From IMG/VR virus record IMGVR_UViG_3300049165_000080, positions 2,016 to 66,015 of that record: a DNA stretch of 64,000 nt; one strand, 5' to 3'. This stretch comes from a virus. Lineage: Duplodnaviria > Caudoviricetes. Both the position numbers and the translations under genes were made by a program. Positions within the stretch are counted from its first letter, which is position 1. Each line of letters begins with the position of its first letter. Positions 3,243 to 38,178 of this stretch are shown in pieces. The notes beneath the pieces were generated by a model. The model ran no database searches and was not told the DNA's origin. It saw nothing but the letters and a program-made list of their open reading frames with translations.

Positions 3243-3322
3243 TTCTCCTGTGGTTGAGGTGGGCCAGCGCTTGCGGGTTCAGGGAGGGAAAGGGAGCCCG
3301 GGGTTCCCCCCGGGCCAGGAGG

Positions 3323-3508
3323 TCAGAGGTCGAGCAGTTCGCGGGCGTCGGCGAGCTCCAGCCAGTAGCCGTCCCGGATCTCGGGGGTCTGGTCGGCGAG
3401 GAAGCGGTCCCTCAGCTCGGGGATGTTCCGGCTGAGCATCTGGTGCATCGCCACGATGATCGCGGCGGTGGCCCTCTCGTCTGCGGTGGCGGTGCTGGTG
3501 GCGGTCAT
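3323..3508 (-). CDS. Hypothetical protein
   Basis: MTATSTAT start with GGGAG RBS. Confidence 0.55.
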   Translation of the reverse strand: MTATSTATADERATAAIIVAMHQMLSRNIPELRDRFLADQTPEIRDGYWLELADARELLDL

Positions 3509-3650
3509 TTCGTCTCCCTGGCGTCTCGCTCCATGCTGATGCCTCAACCGTATGGCTTACCCATGCACCTGTCAATGACATCCATGCGCCTGGTTTTCCA
3601 ATGCAGTGCGCGGCCTAGGAATGCGCCCCTGACCCGCATACACTGATCGC

Positions 3651-3884
3651 ATGGCACGACCCACTCACCCCTGGATCCCAGTCGGCATCGACGGCATAGC
3701 CGCCGAGCTCGGCGTCTCCGAGAACACCGTCATCGCCTGGCGTCGCCGCTCGGCCGAGTGGGTCAACGTGGCCAAGTTCCCCGAGTCGGAAGGCAAGATC
3801 TCCGGTCGCGACTGGTGGTGGCTCCACGACGTACTGGAGTGGGCGAAGGAGACCGGCCGTCTCAAGCAGCCCGCCGGCGAGTAG
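3651..3884 (+). CDS. Small helix-turn-helix DNA-binding protein (AlpA/excisionase-like)
   Basis: DGIAAELGVSENTVIAWRRR HTH, followed by FPE..G..WWW. Confidence 0.8.
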   Translation: MARPTHPWIPVGIDGIAAELGVSENTVIAWRRRSAEWVNVAKFPESEGKISGRDWWWLHDVLEWAKETGRLKQPAGE

Positions 3885-3900
3885 CCGCTCACCGCCCTCA

Positions 3901-4272
3901 TCAGCCCGCGACCTGAGCGAGAACCCGGCAGCCCACCACCGTGCCGTCGGCATTACGAACCTCGCCGTAAGGCACAAGCAGGTCATCACGACCCGCCTGT
4001 CCGAGAGCCAGCGCCAGCGAAACGACGTACCGGACCCCGTCGACAGGCTGCGGCAGGTCGTGCGCATGCCCGTACTCGACGCCCTCGATCGGGATGCCGT
4101 CGACGTAGGTCCAGGTGCCTAAGTCGATCGTGGCCAACCTGGCGACGGTTCCGGACGGCGGGATCAAGTGCAGCGTCCAGCGCGCCGGATCGTTGACGCG
4201 GTCTGGCGTATCGGGACGGCAGATGCGGATCGGGTGCGGGGTCAGGTTGACGATCCGCCGCTCGGCCTTCAC
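3901..4272 (-). CDS. Conserved phage hypothetical protein (VNLTPH motif)
   Basis: IVNLTPHPIRI...YVVSLALA...DLLVP pattern. Confidence 0.7.
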   Translation of the reverse strand: MKAERRIVNLTPHPIRICRPDTPDRVNDPARWTLHLIPPSGTVARLATIDLGTWTYVDGIPIEGVEYGHAHDLPQPVDGVRYVVSLALALGQAGRDDLLVPYGEVRNADGTVVGCRVLAQVAG

Positions 4273-9322: not shown

Positions 9323-9879
9323 TGGCCCGCCCTCAGGTCGTCGCCTTCGAGCACCACGACCGTCGAGCCGTCAGCAAGCCGCGATGTGATCCGCTCGCCC
9401 AGCTTCTCGTCCAGGTTGTCGAGGTTGGAGGTGATGATCGTGGGGCGGGACTGCGCCCACCTCGTGTCGATGACGGGCAGCAGCAGTTCCCGTGTCCACT
9501 CGTTGATCCGAAAGCTGCCCAGGTCATCGAGCGCCAGGACGTCAACCTCGCGCATCTCGCCGAGCCGTTCACGGTCGGCGGGCGGGCCGACGATCTCCTG
9601 CCACTCAGCCTGGCTGCACATCATGATTTCGCCGCCGTATCCGGCTTTGAGGGCGCGTTCCATGACTTCCCAGCTCGACCAGGTCTTGGCGACGCCGGTC
9701 GGTCCGAACAGGACCAGGTTCCCCGCGGTGCGGTCGAACAGGCGCGAACCCCAGTCGGCGATGTCGTCGTGGAGCTCGCCGGCGTGGCGGAGCCGTACGG
9801 GCCGCTTGGCCTGGAAGTCGGCGACGCGCTTACGGCGCCGTGCGGCGCGCCACTCCGACAGGTTGTCGTCGTCGGTCAT
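9319..9879 (-). CDS. DnaC/IstB-like AAA+ helicase loader
   Basis: GPTGVAKT Walker A, LALDDLG Walker B, IITSN, RITSRL. Confidence 0.9.
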   Translation of the reverse strand: MTDDDNLSEWRAARRRKRVADFQAKRPVRLRHAGELHDDIADWGSRLFDRTAGNLVLFGPTGVAKTWSSWEVMERALKAGYGGEIMMCSQAEWQEIVGPPADRERLGEMREVDVLALDDLGSFRINEWTRELLLPVIDTRWAQSRPTIITSNLDNLDEKLGERITSRLADGSTVVVLEGDDLRAGQ

Positions 9880-10889
9880 GATCGCTTCTTTCCGAAGTTC
9901 TTGGCGTTGTTGTAGCCGCCGGCACGCGGCGGCAGGGGCGTGGGGCTCTGGTGGGTCGTGCCGGTGGCGGCCACGGGTGCGCCGCCTCGGGAGTCTCTGG
10001 ACTTGAGCTCCAACTGGCCGTACTGGGCGCGGAACGTCGGCATCGAGTTGATGTTCTTGTGCCAGAAGTGGTCGCGCTGGGTCCAGTCGAGGACGGCGAG
10101 CGCCTCCTGAAGATCGACGCCGTCCTTGTCGAGCAGCAGTCGCGCCTCGGTGCGCCACGCGTCAGTCACCTCCACCGGGCGTTGGCGGTAGTCCTTCTTC
10201 ACCAGCCAGGCGAGGAGGCGGGCGCACATCTGCTCGACGTCTTCGCGGATCTCGGACGAAGAGAGGTTTTCTTTCTTCTTCTTCTTAGAAGAAGAACTTC
10301 TCTTGTCCGGGATTGATCCACTGGCCAGATTGGCCGATGGATCTGAGCTGGGGTTTTCCCCTTCCAGAGGCTCCATTGGCCAGTCTGGCCACAGGTCCTC
10401 CTGTCCACCGGCCAATTTGGCCACTGGATCTGAGCTGCGGGAATGCTCACCCACCGGCCAATTTGGCCACTGGATGACGTCTCCACCGGCCAAATTGGCC
10501 ACTGGATGGAGCTGCTGGTCAGAGCCACTGGCCAAATTGGCCACTGGACCACCGGCCAATTTGGCCACTGGATCTGAGCTGGGGCTAAGCCGAACGGCAT
10601 CGGGCAGCCGCAGCCCCTTCCCATCCACGCGCCGCTGCCGCGCGATGAAGCCGCACTCCTCCAATTGGTCGAGGTAGCGGCGCGCCGAACGACCACTAAC
10701 GAGCGCGTCCATCGCCACCTCCTCCTGACTGGCCGTGCACTCCCACATCTCGTTCACCCGGCGTGCGAGGCACATGAGCACGACCCGCGCGCCGGGGTTG
10801 TTGGCGATCTGCTGAGCCCACGCCCAGTCGATCGCCGCCTGGTTCAGGCCCGCGGCTTGAGAGCCCGCGGGGTCTTGGTCGTCGGTCAC
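9876..10889 (-). CDS. Phage replication initiator (N-terminal wHTH, iteron-encoded linker, C-terminal helical domain)
   Basis: SQEEVAMDALVSGRSARRYLDQLEECGFI wHTH; internal PVAxLAxG repeats; lies upstream of the loader and helicase. Confidence 0.85.
   Translation of the reverse strand: MTDDQDPAGSQAAGLNQAAIDWAWAQQIANNPGARVVLMCLARRVNEMWECTASQEEVAMDALVSGRSARRYLDQLEECGFIARQRRVDGKGLRLPDAVRLSPSSDPVAKLAGGPVANLASGSDQQLHPVANLAGGDVIQWPNWPVGEHSRSSDPVAKLAGGQEDLWPDWPMEPLEGENPSSDPSANLASGSIPDKRSSSSKKKKKENLSSSEIREDVEQMCARLLAWLVKKDYRQRPVEVTDAWRTEARLLLDKDGVDLQEALAVLDWTQRDHFWHKNINSMPTFRAQYGQLELKSRDSRGGAPVAATGTTHQSPTPLPPRAGGYNNAKNFGKKRS
10318..10584. repeat. Iterons: about 7 copies of CCAC(C/T)GGCCAA(A/T)TTGGCCACTGGAT inside the initiator gene; probable lytic origin
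   Basis: Copies near 10318, 10372 (degenerate), 10405, 10451, 10483, 10525 and 10549; palindromic core GGCCAA-N-TTGGCC. Confidence 0.85.
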
Positions 10890-11002
10890 GTACAGCGGCT
10901 CTCTCTCGGTGATGCTCGGGTCGGGACTACGAGAGCTAGGGCCGTCTTCGGGGTTGAGCCACTTCGATCCCCCCTGGTCACTCAGGTGTTCGAGTCCATA
11001 AT

Positions 11003-11056
11003 ACGCACAAAGTGCGTGTTAAGAAGTCCGGTTATGAAGACACGCAGAAGATGCGT
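11003..11056. promoter_or_regulatory. Two ACGCA-N5-TGCGT palindromic operators
   Basis: 11003-11017 and 11042-11056, in the AT-richer divergent gap. Confidence 0.65.
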
Positions 11057-11102
11057 GTTTTATCATCAAGTTGTGGTAACGGGCACATGAGACGCTGAAG
11101 GA

Positions 11103-11345
11103 GTGGACTCCGAGATGACCGCCGAGCTTGTAGAAGCCGCGACCGCCTACAACGAGGCGCCCAAGCGGCTGCGTGAAGCGATCGTCCAGGCCGCTGAGAC
11201 GCACGACGCCACCGCCGTCGAGATCGCCCGCGCCATCAACTTCACGTACTCCGTCGACTACATAGCGAAGATCGTGCGAGAGGCCGGCGTCTCCCGGCCG
11301 CGCGGTCGCCGTAGGCGCACCCCGCCCGAGCCCTCCTCCGACTGA
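11103..11345 (+). CDS. Small HTH regulator
   Basis: TAVEIARAINFTYSVDYIAKIVR; divergent from the replication operon. Confidence 0.7.
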   Translation: MDSEMTAELVEAATAYNEAPKRLREAIVQAAETHDATAVEIARAINFTYSVDYIAKIVREAGVSRPRGRRRRTPPEPSSD

Positions 11346-11350
11346 CCTGT

Positions 11351-12160
11351 TCACGCCGCGGCCTCCCTATCCCGCCGCTTACGCAGCTCGGCCGCCCGGT
11401 GGCGGCGCCGGTCGTACTCGCGGGAGGCGGCCACCACCAGCGGCGACCGCTCGCCTTGGCGGCGGTGCGCGTGGTTGCAGCGCCGCAACTCCTGCTCGTC
11501 CATCAGCGCGACGCGGCGGCGCAGCTCCGCTTCGAGGTCGGCGTCCGGCAGGTCGATCAGGTCGTCGTCCCAGCCGGCAGGTGGCGGCCAGTCGTTACGG
11601 GCCGCCATCGACCGGGCCAGGGTCGCCCCTGGCGAGGGCGGCGCCGCGGTCGTCGACAGCCGGTCGTACAGGTCGCGGACCGCCCGCGCCGTCTCGGCGG
11701 ACACGCGAGGGTTGCGCGGCACCTTGTAGTAGTTGGTGACGCTGCGGCCGAGCTGGGCGGCCTGGTCGCTCAGCGAGTAGCCGAGTGCGATCAGGGCTTG
11801 AACCCGGCGGCGGGTGCCCGCGGCGTCGACTAATGCCCGGCCGGGGAGGGCGTCCAGGTCGAACGTGACCGCGAGCAGAGAATCCGCGGTGATCGCGAGC
11901 GGGCCGCGGACGTGCCCTCCGGCCATCAGGTCGATCACGCAGGCGTGTGAGACGCCCGCCAGATCGGCGATGGCGTACTTGGACAGGCCGCGCGCCATCA
12001 GCCCGGCAACGTGCGCGCGTACCACCTCGGGGTCTCTGTAGGAGGACCAGCGGCCGTAGGCGATCAGCCGGTTGCGGTTGGCCTTGTAGCGGTTCTTCGC
12101 CGCCCTGCACGAGACGCACCGGCAATTGCGGCTTGTGGTGCCGTGCTTGGTCTCGGCCAT
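11351..12160 (-). CDS. HTH-containing phage protein
   Basis: LSKYAIADLAGVS HTH, GTRRRVQALIALGYS, PPAGWDDD; N-terminal CRCVSC. Confidence 0.75.
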   Translation of the reverse strand: MAETKHGTTSRNCRCVSCRAAKNRYKANRNRLIAYGRWSSYRDPEVVRAHVAGLMARGLSKYAIADLAGVSHACVIDLMAGGHVRGPLAITADSLLAVTFDLDALPGRALVDAAGTRRRVQALIALGYSLSDQAAQLGRSVTNYYKVPRNPRVSAETARAVRDLYDRLSTTAAPPSPGATLARSMAARNDWPPPAGWDDDLIDLPDADLEAELRRRVALMDEQELRRCNHAHRRQGERSPLVVAASREYDRRRHRAAELRKRRDREAAA

Positions 12161-27360: not shown

Positions 27361-27397
27361 AAACGCCCGACTCCAAGTGATCTTGGATCGGGCGTTT
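27361..27397. terminator. Hairpin terminator between int and the att core
   Basis: AAACGCCCGA..TCCAAG-TGAT-CTTGGA..TCGGGCGTTT. Confidence 0.8.
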
Positions 27398-27410
27398 TGC
27401 CTTGTCAGAC

Positions 27411-27457
27411 TGGGAGCCCCCAAACGGAATCGAACCGTTGACCTTCTCCTTACCATG
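27411..27457 (-). tRNA. 3' half of tRNA-Thr(GGT); att core, not a complete tRNA
   Basis: Reverse complement CATGGTAAGGAGAAGGTCAACGGTTCGATTCCGTTTGGGGGCTCCCA = anticodon loop, T arm and acceptor 3' strand; no D arm or 5' strand upstream. Confidence 0.88.
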
Positions 27458-27601: not shown

Positions 27602-27868
27602 TCACGATCTGTCACCCGCGTTGGGCCACTCCTCCGGCGGCGCTACGAACGTCCCCAGCGACGGCACCGGACGCACATACCCCTGCGCCTCCAACTCGTC
27701 AACCGCATGCCGAGCTGTGTTCAAACCGATACCGAACTCCTGAGTCATCCTCTGCAGGCTCGGGATCTTCGTCCGTGGCGGATAGACGCCATCCAGGATC
27801 CGCTGCCGGAGAACCTCCATGAGCTGTAGCCAGCGAGGCCGTTCCGGATCCGGCACCCAATCGATCAT
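27602..27868 (-). CDS. GntR-family wHTH regulator (Kor-like)
   Basis: LRQRILDGVYPPRTKIPS...FGIGLNTARHAVDELEAQG...GTFV. Confidence 0.92.
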   Translation of the reverse strand: MIDWVPDPERPRWLQLMEVLRQRILDGVYPPRTKIPSLQRMTQEFGIGLNTARHAVDELEAQGYVRPVPSLGTFVAPPEEWPNAGDRS

Positions 27869-31339: not shown

Positions 31340-31542
31340 CGCACCACCCATAGACAGCCCGATTCCCGTCCGCTGGCAGCTGCGGGAGTCGGGCGTTCAA
31401 CCCGGTCCTAGCGCGGACACGGGAACGCTGGCGGTCCTGCCCTTCCGACTAGAGGGGACGGAGGGCAGGGCCGCCGCATCTACAGGAGGGAGTCTCCGTG
31501 AACAACTGGCCGCACCACCCCCAACGTCCTACCGTCAGGGAC

Positions 31543-31839
31543 ATGAGCCCCACAGACCGTGACCACTTCGCTGCGATCACCACCCCCCGTGGGAGTGTCG
31601 TGAGCATCTCGTTCCTCACCGCCGAGCAGGCCGGCGATGTCACCGACCAGTTCGAGCCGCCCGCCGAGCCACTCGCGCCGATCGAAGCCGGCAAGGAAAC
31701 CCAGCAGTGCAGCAGGTGCAGCGGGGCCGGCGGCTGGAACGAAGAGGTCAGGACGAAGACCGGCAAGGGCGGCGAGGTCGTCACTCAGCGCTGGGTGAGC
31801 TGTAGGCCCTGCGGCGGCACCGGGCGAGTCTCGAAGTAG
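31543..31839 (+). CDS. Small protein with DnaJ-like CxxCxGxG zinc finger
   Basis: CSRCSGAGG and CRPCGGTG. Confidence 0.7.
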   Translation: MSPTDRDHFAAITTPRGSVVSISFLTAEQAGDVTDQFEPPAEPLAPIEAGKETQQCSRCSGAGGWNEEVRTKTGKGGEVVTQRWVSCRPCGGTGRVSK

Positions 31840-31851
31840 AGCCCCTGTACG

Positions 31852-31890
31852 CGACGGCCCCCGCCTACGAATCCCGGGCGGGGGCCGTCG
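31852..31890. terminator. Hairpin terminator
   Basis: CGACGGCCCCCGCC / GGCGGGGGCCGTCG. Confidence 0.75.
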
Positions 31891-31950
31891 TCATCGCTGC
31901 GTCTTGATCAGTCCAAACTCGGGCCGCGCGTCAGCGCGGCAACGGTCACA

Positions 31951-32089
31951 TGAGTAGTTCTCTGAGTAGGTGGAGTGAGTAGTTGGGTGGAAGTGACTTC
32001 CGGTACCTGCGGAACTCATTTCCGGCACCTACCGGAAGTGGCTTCCGGTAGCCCTGGAAGTGGTTTCCGGTACTGGAAGTCACTTCCGG
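31951..32089. repeat. Second iteron array: 5x GGAA(G/C)T-N2-(C/T)TTCCGG plus 3x TGAGTAG
   Basis: Copies at 31989, 32011, 32034, 32056 and 32075; TGAGTAG at 31951, 31963 and 31976. Confidence 0.85.
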
Positions 32090-32103
32090 CACCGAACGCC
32101 CGA

Positions 32104-32832
32104 TCACCAGTCGTCTCCGCGCGACAGCCGGAACATCTTCCAGACCTCCTCATTGCCCTGCTTGCTCCACACGGGCTTGCCCGACTCCGCCATCCGACGA
32201 TTCCAGGCGTCGTAGCACCACGGCTCGTCGCGGCCCTTGGTCTTGCGTGGCGCCGGACAGAAGACGAACTGGCGGACGTTGAACGTCACCCGGCCGTCAT
32301 CGGTGAGCGTGCAGTTGCCTTGCGGGTTGATGAGCTTGTCGCAGTGCTGGCAGGTGAACTTCTTCGATCGAGGGCCGAGGATTGGCAGGTTCGCCCAGTT
32401 GTCCGGGATGACCAGCTCGTACTCGTCGGCCTTGCGCGCGTGCGCGACCGCGTGAGACACGCGCTCGGCCAGCCCCAGCCCTCGGATCACCGCCCACGCG
32501 GTTCGGACCGTACGTTCGCTGTAGCCGGTCTCTCGGGCGAGCCGCTCGTTGCTGGGATGGCAGGAGGTGCCGTCGAACAAGTCTGCGTAGTCCATCGCGG
32601 ACCGAGCCACGAGCTTGACGGAGGATTCCACGAGAAGAATCCGGATAAGGCTGTTCCATCGAGCGACGAAAGGCTTATCGTCGTCATCGGGTCGAATCAC
32701 AGTTGCTAGTGCCTTAGCTGAGCGGTGAAGGAAAGCAACGAGACCCGGAACCCTCGCAGCGCGCGGCGAGCCGTACGGTGGCCAGCGCCCGCGCCAGGTT
32801 CGGATCGATGGCCGACCGGAGTGTTGGCGCAC
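32104..32832 (-). CDS. Replication-initiator-like wHTH protein with Cys cluster (start uncertain)
   Basis: SCHPSNERLARETGYSERTVRTAWAVIRGLGL wHTH typical of Rep/replisome organisers; CQHC; iterons follow the stop. Confidence 0.7.
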   Translation of the reverse strand: MRQHSGRPSIRTWRGRWPPYGSPRAARVPGLVAFLHRSAKALATVIRPDDDDKPFVARWNSLIRILLVESSVKLVARSAMDYADLFDGTSCHPSNERLARETGYSERTVRTAWAVIRGLGLAERVSHAVAHARKADEYELVIPDNWANLPILGPRSKKFTCQHCDKLINPQGNCTLTDDGRVTFNVRQFVFCPAPRKTKGRDEPWCYDAWNRRMAESGKPVWSKQGNEEVWKMFRLSRGDDW

Positions 32833-32850
32833 CCGGCAGCCCCGCAGAAC

Positions 32851-32883
32851 ACGAAGCCCCCGTCCTATGGCGGGGGCTTTCGT
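32851..32883. terminator. Hairpin terminator
   Basis: ACGAAGCCCCCGTCC / GGCGGGGGCTTTCGT. Confidence 0.7.
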
Positions 32884-32891
32884 CTTGTCGG

Positions 32892-33191
32892 TTACTCGGC
32901 GTCTTCGTCGCGGCGGCGCGGGCGGCGCAGGATCGCGAGGATCTCCTCCTGCGACATCGCGGCGATCCGCTCGATCTCTTCCTCGGTAGGCCGCTCGGGC
33001 AGCTCGGCGCCGGGCACGCGCAGGAACCAGTCCACGAGTTGGCTCATGACTTCGGTGCGGTTGCTCTTGACCGACAAGGACGCAATGCCAAACCGCCCCC
33101 ACTTCAGGGCGCCCATTCTCATGCTCTGCTTCGGCGTCTTCGGTTGGTTCGGCACACGGTAACCGTAAGTGCTCATGGTCTCGGTTGTCAT
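32892..33191 (-). CDS. Ribbon-helix-helix-like small regulator (KorB/CopG-like)
   Basis: PKTPKQSMRMG..KW..F......RTEVMSQLVDWFL..PGAELPERP; divergent from the transfer operon. Confidence 0.65.
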   Translation of the reverse strand: MTTETMSTYGYRVPNQPKTPKQSMRMGALKWGRFGIASLSVKSNRTEVMSQLVDWFLRVPGAELPERPTEEEIERIAAMSQEEILAILRRPRRRDEDAE

Positions 33192-33267
33192 TACGCCTCC
33201 AGGGTTGAGGTGGGGGGACACCTCAGGTTAGGGTGGGGGGACACCTAGAGTCAAAGGGAGTCGGTAC

Positions 33268-35236: not shown

Positions 35237-35478
35237 GGACCGCCCGGCGGTGGGTGGCCTACATCCTCTGGCTCGTGGTCGCCGCCCCCATTCACGTATG
35301 GATCATTTCGTTGCAGCGCCTCGGTGTGCTGGTGGGTGAGGCGCTGGTGTGGCTGGTCGACCTGGCCGCCGCGCTGGCCGGATGGCCGCCCGCCCGTGTC
35401 CTGCTCACGCGTGCGGCGAGGCAGGCGGCCGGAGCTGCCGCCCACGAATTTCGCCCCCCGTCCTGGAGATCAGCATGA
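35233..35478 (+). CDS. Small membrane protein (Spd-like)
   Basis: Hydrophobic; coupled. Confidence 0.6.
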   Translation: MRTARRWVAYILWLVVAAPIHVWIISLQRLGVLVGEALVWLVDLAAALAGWPPARVLLTRAARQAAGAAAHEFRPPSWRSA

Positions 35479-35921
35479 CGATTCGCGGTAAGCGCATGGT
35501 GTGGAAAGGCCGCAACCACACCCGGAAGAACAAGGGTGACCTGCGGGCACTGTTCGCGATCCCGATGACGTCGCCGTCTGCGGTGGCCGACTTCGCCGAC
35601 CAGCTGCGCGCCGTAGGGATGCGCCTGGAGGTGGGCGTCGAAGGGTCGATCGACGACCTTGATGACAACCTCGTCGCGATGATCCGCGAGACCTACAAGA
35701 TGGGCCGGATGGCGGCCCGGTACCGCACCCGCCGGGTCCGGCAACGCGGTGAGGCGCTGCAGAGGCTGGCGGAGGCGTTCGCCAAGAACGCGGTCAAGTT
35801 GAACAGGGAGTTCGAGCAAGTCCTGGCCGCGCTGGAGGACGACGAAGAGCGCGATGCCGCCAAGAAGGGCAAGAAGACGACCCGCCGCACGCCTCGCCCG
35901 GCGTTCAGCCTGGATGACTGA
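35475..35921 (+). CDS. TraA-like plasmid transfer accessory protein
   Basis: Basic helical protein directly upstream of traB, as in Streptomyces traA-traB; the TSPSAVADFADQLR segment resembles TraA. Confidence 0.55.
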   Translation: MTIRGKRMVWKGRNHTRKNKGDLRALFAIPMTSPSAVADFADQLRAVGMRLEVGVEGSIDDLDDNLVAMIRETYKMGRMAARYRTRRVRQRGEALQRLAEAFAKNAVKLNREFEQVLAALEDDEERDAAKKGKKTTRRTPRPAFSLDD

Positions 35922-35929
35922 GGGACGAC

Positions 35930-37978
35930 ATGAGCAGGGTCGAACAGCCCAAGGAGTCCACACGATCGCAGGTCACCCACCGCTACGTCTCCAAGACACT
36001 CCCGATCATGGCGGGGCTGATCTCCATCGTCGGCTACGCGGGGCTGATCGGCGTGACAACGGCATTCACGCCCAACACGCCAGCGGGGCGAGTCGTGCTG
36101 ATGGTGCTGGCCGCGGTGCTTTCAGCGTGGGCATGGGCCGCAGCCAAAGCGCGCCCCCGCAAGGTACGGGTTCACCTGGCGCTCACGGCCGGCGCCGTGT
36201 CTCTGGCCTGTCTGGCGCACGAACTGATCGAGTTCGCCGCCATCTGGCAATGGAGCGCGCTGTTGTGGCTGGCGCTCGCCGTGTCGTGGGTACTGCACAT
36301 CCTGGTCGAGGAGTCGGCGCGCGACCCCCAGGCGGCCGGACCTAAAGCCATCGCCAGCGCAGGCGACCCTCTGCAGGCGGTGTTCACGCTGGCCGCCCAC
36401 GAGACGCATGCCGAGCCGCTCGCGGTGCGCACCACGAAAGCGACCCCGCACAAGATTTCAGGAGTAGTGACGCTTGAGGCCGGCGACGACGCCGAGCAGT
36501 TCCTGAAGGACGGCGGCCTGGCCTCGGTCGAGTCCGGAGCGAACCTACCGCCCGGATCGCTACAGGGTGACCCCTCGCGGCACTCACGCCGTGAGGTGCA
36601 CGTGAACCTGTCAGACCCGACCGCACTCGACACCCCGCCGCGCTGGCCCGGCCCCTCCCGGCCGGGCGCGTCAATCGCCGACCCGATCCACCTCGGCCTC
36701 TTCCAGACTCTCGACGTGTGCGAGGTGACGCTGATCGGCGGGCACGTCGCCATCACCGGCACGTCCGGCGCGGGCAAAGGCTTCGGCGGCGCGTGGGGCG
36801 CCCTCGGCGAGGCGATCACCCGGCAGGACTTGGCCGTGTTCGCCGCCGACCCGGCCAAGGACGAGCAGACGTTCGGGCCGCTGGCCGCGGCGATGCACGT
36901 TGTGGAGTACACGTCCGGCGGCGGGGTGGCCCTGCTGGGCGACCTCAACGCGGAGATTCCGCGCCGGACGGCATGGCTGTCGGCGCGCAAGTATGCGACC
37001 TGGCGTTCAGGGTGCGGCCTGAAGTACTGGCTGGTGTGGCTGGAGGAGTTCCCACGCCTGGTCGCCGAGATGACCGACAGGGAGTGGGAGGACTTCAAGC
37101 TGCTGCTGAAGGAGATCCGCTCAGCCGGCGGGACCGTGGTCATCAGCCTGCAGGACCTTCACCACAGCGAGGTCGACGACATCGGCGTCATCCGCGGACA
37201 GCTCGGCCGGTGGACCTTCGGCATGATGGGCTGGGAGCAGGCCAAACGGTCACTGTCGGACCGGCAGAAGTCGTTCGAGCTGGCCCCCGGCGGGGCGCCG
37301 CAGGACTGGCAGACGAACTGTCCCGGCCGGTCACTGATCGACCTGAAGGGCATGCCGGCCGAGCTGGTGACGGTGCCGCTGCACACGTGGAACTGGGGCG
37401 AGGACGACGCCGAGCGTTACGCCACGATGGAGGCGCACGTCGCCGGGCACACCCACACCAAGGACCTGCCCGACGACGAGTTCACGGCGAGGATCGTGGC
37501 TAAGGCGCGGCAGCGGTCAGAGGCTCACGGCGATGACCTCGACGACGAGGAACGCCAGGACATCCGCGGCAGCCAGGAGTCGACGAGCGTCGGCGAAGCC
37601 GACCATGTCCTGCGCGAGGCCGGCATCTATCCGGAGCCGGGAGACGACGGCATCGACCCGCGCCAGCCGGTGGTGTCGACGGCAGACCCGGCGATCACCT
37701 TCCCTGGCCAGCCGGAGCCTGAGCCGCAGTTGACGCCCGAGCTGGCGCGTCGGCGGCTTCTGGAAACGCTCTGCGAGTGGGCGGTCGAAGGCCGGACCGA
37801 GTTCGCGACCGCCGACATGCGCCCGATATGGGAGGCGGCCGGCTACACCCGCCAGTGGGCGCAGAAGGCGGCGCACAAACTGCACGACGACGGACTGCTG
37901 CTCCGCGAGGGCGGCGTGTGGGTCCTGATTCCGGAGGCGCTGCTGAGGGCCCGCGAGCGCCAGATGGCGGAGGTGTAG
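35930..37978 (+). CDS. traB: TraB-like FtsK/SpoIIIE conjugative dsDNA translocase
   Basis: N-terminal TM helices; Walker A GTSGAGKG; Walker B WLEE; IRSAGG.V.ISLQ; C-terminal wHTH TRQWAQKAAHKLHDDGLL. Confidence 0.85.
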   Translation: MSRVEQPKESTRSQVTHRYVSKTLPIMAGLISIVGYAGLIGVTTAFTPNTPAGRVVLMVLAAVLSAWAWAAAKARPRKVRVHLALTAGAVSLACLAHELIEFAAIWQWSALLWLALAVSWVLHILVEESARDPQAAGPKAIASAGDPLQAVFTLAAHETHAEPLAVRTTKATPHKISGVVTLEAGDDAEQFLKDGGLASVESGANLPPGSLQGDPSRHSRREVHVNLSDPTALDTPPRWPGPSRPGASIADPIHLGLFQTLDVCEVTLIGGHVAITGTSGAGKGFGGAWGALGEAITRQDLAVFAADPAKDEQTFGPLAAAMHVVEYTSGGGVALLGDLNAEIPRRTAWLSARKYATWRSGCGLKYWLVWLEEFPRLVAEMTDREWEDFKLLLKEIRSAGGTVVISLQDLHHSEVDDIGVIRGQLGRWTFGMMGWEQAKRSLSDRQKSFELAPGGAPQDWQTNCPGRSLIDLKGMPAELVTVPLHTWNWGEDDAERYATMEAHVAGHTHTKDLPDDEFTARIVAKARQRSEAHGDDLDDEERQDIRGSQESTSVGEADHVLREAGIYPEPGDDGIDPRQPVVSTADPAITFPGQPEPEPQLTPELARRRLLETLCEWAVEGRTEFATADMRPIWEAAGYTRQWAQKAAHKLHDDGLLLREGGVWVLIPEALLRARERQMAEV

Positions 37979-37981
37979 CCG

Positions 37982-38112
37982 GGTGGCACTTCTGGAGCGT
38001 GGCACCCCGTAACGGGCCGGACGCGAGGGTTACAGGTCAACGGGGTGCAACGCGCCCGTGGCAGCCCATCGTGGCACCTCCGTGGCAGGGACCGTTGCAC
38101 CCCCCGTGGCAC
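37982..38112 (+). repeat. clt-like locus: 8 copies of the 8-mer (C/G)GT(G/T)GCA(C/G)
   Basis: Copies at 37982, 37998, 38045 (inverted), 38057, 38070, 38081, 38093 and 38105, immediately after the traB stop. Confidence 0.75.
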
Positions 38113-38178
38113 CCCCTGAGACGCCCCTCACTCATCATCCTCACCGCTTCACCCCCAAGGCAGACAGGAGCCACGCAG

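Follow-up and report, generated by a model that had tools for sequence, protein, structure and literature searches.

A putative iteron-type origin cassette with a candidate new initiator in a phage genome that carries a conjugative-element backbone

Integrative and conjugative elements of actinomycetes (AICEs) are held to replicate by means of RepSA, RepAM, or Prim-Pol modules (PMC2440964, PMC3218068). A 2008 review states that replication proteins are encoded by essentially all AICEs, and that pMEA-type ones (RepAM-based) are without theta-type Rep proteins and iterons (PMC2440964); a survey from 2011 searched for AICEs with known Rep profiles only (PMC3218068). Iteron origins follow a general scheme in which phased repeats lie beside a patch that melts easily and beside a G+C-rich element (PMC2440964). 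In the theta plasmids of Streptomyces, a rep gene is joined by a non-coding iteron region that includes long inverted repeats (PMC3583192). Here we describe a locus of similar anatomy in a virus genome of the Caudoviricetes. The DNA analyzed, called the window below, is a stretch of 64,000 nucleotides that corresponds to bases 2016–66,015 of the 66,015-bp IMG/VR virus contig IMGVR_UViG_3300049165_000080. The locus consists of a gene for a 198-amino-acid protein with a winged helix-turn-helix (wHTH) and four conserved cysteines, called the wHTH-Cys4 protein, followed directly by five palindromic repeats, three shorter repeats in a weakly paired patch, and a GC hairpin. On balance, we favor reading it as an iteron-type origin served by a putative new family of initiators.

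Anatomy and conservation of the locus

The wHTH-Cys4 gene lies in a minus-strand open frame that extends from 33102 to 32104, with its stop codon at 32104–32106. Along this frame the G+C content at third codon positions (GC3) reached coding values only from about 32650–32700, and the homologues all begin with MIRPDD, which in the window gene corresponds to a GTG at 32700. Because of the rise in GC3 and the N-termini of the homologues, we place the gene start at 32700. A start at about 32832, which would give a protein of about 243 amino acids, was rejected on the same grounds. That start had been assumed in an earlier note on this DNA, made from the letters alone, which described a Rep-type wHTH/Cys protein at this place; its stop codon was confirmed and its description of the protein was borne out by the domain match and the four cysteines reported below, whereas its start was not.

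Reading away from the gene, the order of elements is stop codon, five iterons, three 12–13-mers, GC hairpin, and the terminator of a convergent gene (Table 1). The iterons are flanked by CCGGTAC-type sequence. Their centers, counted from the gene, are spaced by 19, 22, 23, and 22 bp, and the Tandem Repeats Finder (TRF) period is 22. When both strands of the window were scanned with the pattern CCGGAAGTNACTTCC, allowing up to three mismatches, 10 of the 15 matches fell inside the 100-bp array stretch, and the five matches outside it all had three mismatches. Because only about 4.9 matches would be expected in the whole 64 kb, we conclude that the array is not a product of chance. As a whole it can fold as a long inverted repeat. 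The 12–13-mers carry TGAGTAG on the plus strand at 31951, 31963, and 31976, a spacing of 12 and 13 bp. The 40-bp G+C content of their patch is 0.45, compared with a mean of 0.675 for the window, and, ranked by instability, the patch comes fifth among all 40-mers of the window (top 0.1%). Both the five palindromes of about 22-bp spacing and the three TGAGTAG repeats had been pointed out in the earlier note, and both were located here; the GC hairpin lies just outside the interval that it covered (31951–33191).

No iteron-like sites were found elsewhere in the window or in the gap upstream of the gene, and the exact 7-mer iteron core was absent within 260 nt upstream of the gene in all 14 loci described below. 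Because neither the rest of the window nor the region upstream of any homologue holds such sites, we conclude that each element has a single cis site. The earlier note had also held that the iterons are unrelated to the repeats of the lytic initiator, and this is the case: the repeats inside the gene for the O-like initiator (10.45–10.57 kb, consensus CCACCGGCCAAATTGG) share no sequence with them.

Four other assignments were considered and set aside. A TTCCACC junction past the last iteron has only the TCCAC core of the actinomycete DnaA box and is not conserved, and it was not used as evidence. A pC194-like nick site, CTTGAT at 31903–31908, is absent from the relatives and was dropped. Searches for a known RNA family gave only spurious microRNA-hairpin rows, far under gathering scores. 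Finally, the array was rejected as a cis-acting locus of transfer (clt), given that a separate array with a 12-bp period lies directly after traB; the iteron array accompanies the wHTH-Cys4 gene also where no TraB lies nearby.

A word-indexed search returned 133 relatives of the protein, nearly all of them 195–230 amino acids long and covering 100% of the query. An exhaustive profile search returned about 20 clusters (at 50% identity) of full-length members and about 1,200 proteins with the winged helix only. The stop position is conserved among the homologues, and a search for longer forms found one protein. These results bear on the possibility, raised in the earlier note, that the locus is a decayed remnant, in which a truncated initiator gene is followed by repeats that either derive from its linker or arose by chance. 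Such a structure might be expected here, because this genome's lytic O-like initiator has repeats that lie within its gene. However, the 133 homologues share both length and stop, the high-confidence fold of the protein ends at a conserved C-terminal tryptophan, the architecture is kept in all loci, and the only two longer forms in the family add a GIY-YIG domain and not a translated array, so that no read-through of the repeats is seen. Because the lengths and stop of the homologues are conserved and the longer forms are GIY-YIG fusions, we conclude that the stop at 32104 is ancestral and that truncation is refuted; decay of any kind is extremely improbable.

Thirteen further loci were examined, making 14 with the window. 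They come from Nonomuraea (L004, L008, L017), Micromonospora (L006, L011, L014), Streptomonospora (L009), Paractinoplanes (L012), Acrocarpospora (L013), Thermomonospora (L007), Nocardiopsis (L016), a Streptosporangiaceae metagenome-assembled genome (L015), and a 111-kb viral contig (L021). They are AICE-like islands and prophage-like regions. In all 14 the stop codon is followed by five to six palindromic repeats, three 12–13-mers, and, 8–12 nt further on, a GC hairpin, and the spacing of the iterons is kept at 19/22–23/23/22–23 bp. The repeat units are alike within each array, but their sequence differs between clades: CCGGAAGT.ACTTCCGG, CCGGAAACCATTTCC, CCCAAAGTCAGTTTCGG, GGTGAAAC..., CCGGCAGC.GTTGCCG, GGTAACGGTTACC, and TCCAACNGTTGGA. 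Where the divergence is greatest, the recognition helix is changed as well (for example, SVVTVNN in L014 compared with SERTVRT). An architecture that is conserved while the repeats are clade-specific is what would be expected of a cognate pair of protein and site under selection.

The hairpin was found at the same position in all 13 loci scanned and, in addition, in L021. Among the eight loci with a tetraloop, five of eight stem pairs change on both sides and 96.4% of cells pair, in an alignment that was centered on already detected hairpins and whose covariation has to be read with that caveat. None of 500 shuffles reached the observed value, and slid controls collapsed.

The Paractinoplanes locus contains a paralogue with a cassette of its own. 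Its two cassettes, at 3246–3893 (minus strand) and 10001–10615, lie 7 kb apart and have the same architecture with different iterons (TCCAACNGTTGGA compared with CCGGAAGT.ACTTCCGG). This pair hints either at naturally compatible specificities or at tandem elements.

The wHTH-Cys4 protein

In a Pfam search with E values up to 0.1, the protein matched HTH_36 alone (4.6e-6); NCBIfam gave no match. The cysteines C117, C120, C148, and C162, which make up the Cys4 module, are invariant across the aligned homologues. Structure prediction, which the earlier note had proposed, gave an AlphaFold2 (AF2) model built on 31 homologues with a predicted local distance difference test (pLDDT) score of 93.4. 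The model consists of an extended winged helix (residues ~8–106), a small beta-rich Cys4 module, and two C-terminal helices, which end at the almost invariant tryptophan. Fold searches with it returned generic winged-helix proteins, the best being the extended winged helix of TFE/TFIIE-alpha (Z 8.4) and Fur/PerR/Zur; the DnaD-N fold was matched at Z 6.5. Comparison with RepA_N (PF06970) gave weak Foldseek rows only, to staphylococcal structures (4pt7, E 0.037; 5kbj, E 0.052), and an Atlas lead of 0.86, with no Pfam match. The C-terminal half, modeled alone (pLDDT 85), had no structural relative, its best match being the YacG zinc ribbon at Z 2.4 and its Foldseek E values being at least 0.28. 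A sequence search of solved structures with the protein returned nothing below E 0.04.

Six of the seven PHROG families that the protein matched are replication initiators or loaders (phrog_270, 8102, 1032, 391, 678, and 186). The E values, over residues ~25–100, were 7e-7 for phrog_270, 2e-5 for phrog_391, and 8.5e-4 for phrog_186. Families 391 and 678 are O-like and family 186 is DnaD-like; each was matched through its N-terminal DNA-binding domain only, and the alignments end at about residue 100–150 of the wHTH-Cys4 protein. The top-scoring family, phrog_26991 (4e-11), is without annotated function. The 337-amino-acid O-like initiator of the window matched the same PHROG families, and there is no pairwise similarity between it and the wHTH-Cys4 protein. 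The winged helix is also 45% identical over 58 amino acids to a 391-amino-acid HTH protein that heads the Mycobacterium avium plasmid pVT2. One related M. avium plasmid protein carries the annotation Rep; an open paper showing this role by experiment was not found.

None of the profiles for the known initiator families RepSA (PF20199), RepAM (PF12307), Prim-Pol (PF09250), and Rep_3 was matched by the protein. The test with AICE Rep profiles was validated by the RepSA of an element that neighbors the cassette in L008, which was detected at 1.8e-149. On the strength of these profile comparisons we conclude that the winged helix is of the replication-initiator type, and that the protein, by sequence or domain structure, lies outside Rep_3, the O/DnaD-like initiators, RepSA, RepAM, and Prim-Pol, and probably outside RepA_N as well.

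Proposed mechanism and genomic setting

We favor an origin because the locus matches iteron origins in its parts, order, and geometry and because the protein encoded beside it has an initiator-type DNA-binding domain. In the mechanism that we propose, dimers of the wHTH-Cys4 protein would bind the five palindromic iterons, whose spacing of about two helical turns would set the dimers on one face of the DNA. The resulting nucleoprotein complex would strain and open the neighboring weakly paired triplet of 12–13-mers. The GC hairpin would bound the opened zone and may also end the initiator transcript past the origin, which would make passage of transcription across the origin an inherent part of the scheme. 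Because this hairpin lies past the origin and not right behind the gene, transcription of the initiator gene probably runs through the repeats and the weak patch before it ends; transcription-assisted opening, although a conjecture, would be compatible with its position. Host helicase and primase, or the phage's own DnaB, would take over next. The segment 31923–32700, together with the promoter gap, would then be a portable replication cassette composed of a small initiator gene with its cognate origin directly downstream, a view whose chances we put at slightly better than even. With it, the element would possess a plasmid-type origin capable of autonomous replication apart from that of the O/DnaC/DnaB module, for example for replication of the circle around conjugative transfer.

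Several points weigh against such an origin. The genome already has a complete O/DnaC/DnaB replication module. The protein has one winged helix and a zinc module, without the WH1-WH2 pair of Rep_3, and it is without the DnaD-like C-terminal domain of O-like initiators and thus has no recognizable helicase-recruiting part. No convincing DnaA box was seen in the locus, and no iteron-like autoregulatory site appears at the gene promoter. The iterons are palindromes like those in operators and centromeres, and classical iterons are asymmetric. An array directly downstream of the gene for its binding protein is also the layout of sopB-sopC and parB-parS. Finally, the plain theta-origin model does not predict the link to GIY-YIG nucleases in relatives, described below, and leaves it unexplained.

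Some of these features would also suit segregation or copy control, with a centromere-binding or handcuffing protein and with the array as a partition or incompatibility locus and not an initiation site. Palindromic, dimer-type sites stand directly downstream of the gene for the binding protein, as in sopB-sopC and parB-parS; there is one cis site per element; and the whole array folds as a long inverted repeat. However, a ParA-type ATPase was not found in the record (no match to PF13614 or PF01656; the record is estimated to be 81% complete, and this absence is not absolute) and was not seen beside the cassette in the other loci; the upstream genes are RHH-like, GntR, or Cro-like. Furthermore, no known centromere makes use of a 12–13-mer triplet and hairpin like those conserved here, and the winged helix matches initiator families and not ParB, ParG, or ParR. 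A partition locus is therefore improbable.

The GIY-YIG link concerns five loci (L006, L007, L011, L014, and L015), in which a gene with a GIY-YIG domain (phrog_16880, phrog_3312; E 1e-13 to 1e-17) lies directly after the cassette. In two proteins, P0112 and P0121, the whole wHTH-Cys4 protein is fused to a C-terminal GIY-YIG domain, and P0137 consists of HTH_36 plus GIY-YIG. The cassette might thus be a targeting module, whose protein marks a site for a partner nuclease in homing-type spread or in nick-primed initiation, with the window copy as a nuclease-less derivative. Against this, no GIY-YIG gene is present in the window's record or in eight of the 13 other loci, yet the cassette in these nine loci is intact and conserved. 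Free-standing homing endonuclease genes that settle beside conserved genes typically show such presence or absence at a single spot, and the fusions amount to about two of 135 family members. We consider a targeting function to have little probability.

A more far-reaching version of the origin hypothesis would have the wHTH-Cys4 protein found a new initiator family whose portable cassette serves, in Streptosporangiales and Micromonosporales, both temperate phages and conjugative elements that integrate. This genome would then be a three-way element, with a virion, TraB conjugation, and plasmid-type replication, and the GIY-YIG pairing and fusion in relatives would point to a nick-assisted start of replication without an HUH enzyme. 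Taken as a whole, this version is doubtful.

The cassette is the only item common to all of the loci, and its neighbors are mosaic. TraB-type genes lie within 10 kb of it in L008, L009, L016, L017, and probably L004. In these loci and the window, examined over ±10 kb, no RepSA occurs in the same element as the cassette. The sole RepSA found (PF20199, 1.8e-149) belongs to a second AICE that stands in tandem with the cassette element of L008 (15131–20431) and has a tyrosine integrase and an FtsK-like gene of its own. Homologues of the O, DnaC, and DnaB proteins of the window were not found in any locus. The wHTH-Cys4 gene sits after a Cro/CI-type HTH gene in L012 and after a small unannotated gene of 80 amino acids in L006 and L014, which by analogy is the place of the initiator in lambdoid phages. 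GntR regulators are frequent neighbors, and in 10 of 15 cassettes a same-strand gene begins 60–250 nt past the hairpin.

These last two observations, and fold matches that are mostly to winged-helix regulators, including Fur/PerR types with a Cys4 site, would fit a transcription factor with a clustered operator. It could repress, activate, or terminate transcription over the gap, perhaps as a master switch of the Pra kind that GntR controls, or as a roadblock that shields convergent or downstream genes. However, a convergent gene faces the array in three loci (the window, L004, and L008), where it thus has no promoter to control, and from locus to locus the genes downstream are unrelated. Further sites are absent, also from the promoter of the gene itself, and five phased sites with a three-unit weak patch exceed the needs of an operator. 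For these reasons a regulatory role is unlikely, and we retain the origin as the preferred explanation.

The source record was classed as linear, with a CheckV completeness of 81%, and is an unintegrated form. Three blocks make up the window: a complete set of late genes of the siphovirus type (TerL, portal, protease, major head protein, tape measure, endolysin), a lambda-like replication module at 8–11 kb (O-like initiator, DnaC-like loader, DnaB), and, between them at 25–41 kb, an AICE-type backbone. The gene for the O-like initiator has internal repeats at 10451–10572, and beside these repeats, still inside the gene, lies the 40-mer that is the least stable in the window (10267–10306), which suggests a lambda-like origin within the gene. 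In the backbone, the integrase has 663 amino acids. The 510-amino-acid protein is common to the window and the Nonomuraea elements, and its gene is a membrane-protein gene that heads the transfer operon. The attP core (27389–27457) is 94% identical over 69 bp to 13468–13536 of L017, the tRNA-Thr(GGT) border of the L017 element. Because of this match, the phage integrase and attP appear to be of the same type as in that AICE-like relative. No att-type direct repeats of at least 14 bp were found flanking 25–41 kb. From this result and the attP match, the possibility that the AICE block is a separate insertion in a prophage was rejected. Comparisons with 50,697 phage records, by megablast of 25.0–41.5 kb and by tblastn of TraB, gave no match. 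Just past attP, a third, weak HTH_36 match (2.8e-4; 27674–27763, minus strand) possibly marks an excisionase-like or regulatory gene.

Because the cassette occupies an AICE-type backbone next to TraA and TraB, a replication function is expected at its site (PMC2440964). The earlier note had proposed two origins, a DnaB-coupled lytic one and a second that could maintain or amplify the excised circle. The anatomical side of this proposal stands: there is an origin-like unit distinct from the O/DnaC/DnaB module, its protein has an initiator-type winged helix, and it lies in an AICE-type backbone. The functional side, that is, replication and the maintenance or amplification of a circle, we infer. 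The position of the cassette beside a full O/DnaC/DnaB module and a TraB system thus supports two origins on anatomical grounds only.

Table 1. Features of the window and, in the last row, of related loci
Feature	Position	Strand	Remarks
Terminator of convergent gene	31852-31890		14-bp arms
GC hairpin	31923..31940		7-bp stem GCCGCGC/GCGCGGC, 4-nt loop; 8-12 nt past third 13-mer
Three 12-13-mers	31951..31984		minus-strand reading nACCnACTCATnn; A+T-richer patch; candidate DNA-unwinding element
Iteron array	31987..32094		five palindromes of ACCGGAAGTNACTTCCGGT type; begins 10-14 bp past stop codon
GGAAG-N3-CTTCC units	31989-32001, 32011-32023, 32034-32046, 32056-32068, 32075-32087		
wHTH-Cys4 protein gene	32104..32700	minus	198 aa; open reading frame, GC3, HTH_36, homologues; putative origin-binding initiator
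Upstream gap	32701..32849	minus	lowered G+C; presumed own promoter of wHTH-Cys4 gene
Terminator-like hairpin	32862-32877		between RHH-like gene and wHTH-Cys4 gene
Small upstream gene	32892..33221	minus	94-109 aa; coding by GC3; ribbon-helix-helix (RHH)-like by one lead
O-like initiator gene	9876-10889		337 aa; internal repeats and A+T-rich patch; followed by DnaC-like loader, DnaB
AICE-type backbone			integrase, attP, GntR regulator, cassette, RHH-like gene, 510-aa protein, TraA-like, TraB, clt-like array
TraA-like gene	35349-35921		in backbone
TraB gene	35930-37978		NF041214, 3.4e-68
clt-like array	38055-38116		12-bp period, five units; directly after traB
GIY-YIG genes of related loci	L006 10844-12184; L007 10869-11720; L011 ~10800-12128; L014 ~10825-11493; L015 ~3264-4040		

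A sigma-70 consensus was not found in the gap upstream of the wHTH-Cys4 gene. The RHH gene that the earlier note placed upstream is coding by GC3, but its RHH label comes from a single Atlas lead (0.95 to the RHH_9 cluster); searches of Pfam, NCBIfam, and PHROGs gave no match. Among the loci examined, a homologue was found in L008 only, and a terminator-like hairpin separates the gene from the wHTH-Cys4 gene; it is a neighbor and not a conserved member of the cassette. It probably regulates either the divergent transfer operon or the cassette. A 23-bp direct repeat in two copies (GGTTAAGGTGGGGGGACACCTCA, 33203–33246) lies over the start of this gene, in the divergent gap to the gene for the 510-amino-acid protein, and is a candidate operator. 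On the other side of the cassette, the convergent gene (31498–31839, 113 amino acids) has CxxC...CxxC motifs of the DnaJ-type zinc finger (PF00684, 7.6e-4, below the cut-off). In L004, genes of 114 and 68 amino acids after the cassette match it in size and position, and tblastn gave no sequence match.

Comparison with known systems

If the cassette is an origin, it would add a fourth, iteron-type module to those of AICEs and reveal a class of elements that is invisible to surveys with known Rep profiles; because the 2011 survey used only such profiles as search criteria, it would have missed these elements (PMC3218068). The unit is about 0.8 kb long and self-contained, and it occurs in genera without genetic tools (Nonomuraea, Micromonospora, relatives of Actinoplanes, Thermomonospora, and Nocardiopsis). 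Should it replicate, it could be used directly as an origin for vectors; its iteron specificities differ naturally and may be mutually compatible, and L012 has two. With TraB conjugation and an AICE-type origin beside its own O/DnaC/DnaB replicon, the phage would, if this is true, be an unusually clear hybrid of phage and conjugative element.

Among the systems with arrays that are not origins, ParABS and SopABC share the position of the repeats next to the gene for the binding protein, the array here beginning 10–14 bp past the stop; they differ in that no cognate ParA was found in the record, which is an estimated 81% complete. In a clt, 8-bp TraB recognition sequence (TRS) repeats lie beside traB and are read by the winged helix of TraB, whereas the cassette array is separate from the array after traB.

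The modules described for AICEs (RepSA, RepAM, and Prim-Pol/RepPP) occupy the same niche as the cassette, between GntR genes and TraB transfer genes (PMC2440964, PMC3218068), but the wHTH-Cys4 protein is unrelated to all three. With the lambda O-like and DnaD-like initiators (PHROG 391, 270, 1032, and 186) it shares an N-terminal HTH_36-type winged helix that is homologous at the profile level, and the L012 gene shares the position after a Cro-like gene. It differs from them in having no C-terminal DnaD-like organizer domain and in having its repeats outside the gene.

The theta loci of Streptomyces (pWTY27 repAB, pFP1/pFP11 repA, SCP2 repI/II) have in common with the cassette the actinomycete setting, a rep gene beside a non-coding, foldable block of repeats, both direct and inverted, and TraB-type conjugation, but their Rep proteins are much larger, that of pWTY27 (RepA) having 522 amino acids (PMC3583192). 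A tblastn search of a plasmid collection revealed no relation to the Streptomyces theta loci; all of its matches were to records from Mycobacterium and Micromonospora and were confined to the winged helix. Class D theta replicons, of the pAMbeta1 type, have an origin directly downstream of the rep gene that the rep transcript can enter, and are not known to have an iteron array. The cassette would resemble them in its origin downstream of the gene, here with a conserved hairpin past the origin, apparently without any sequence relation.

The cassette would work in the manner of the iteron theta replicons (pPS10, RK2, F, and R6K; Rep_3). Common to both are four to six repeats phased at 22–23 bp at one site per replicon, a weak patch with 12–13-bp repeats, a G+C-rich element, and an adjoining initiator gene. 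The cassette protein differs in being a single extended winged helix with a Cys4 module instead of WH1-WH2, with no Rep_3 match; the cassette differs in its palindromic iterons, in having no promoter operator or DnaA box that we could see, and in the location of its origin downstream of the gene. An origin of the iteron kind would thus be of a known type; what appears to be new is a putative family of initiators that occurs, together with its portable origin cassette, in prophages and in AICE-like elements.

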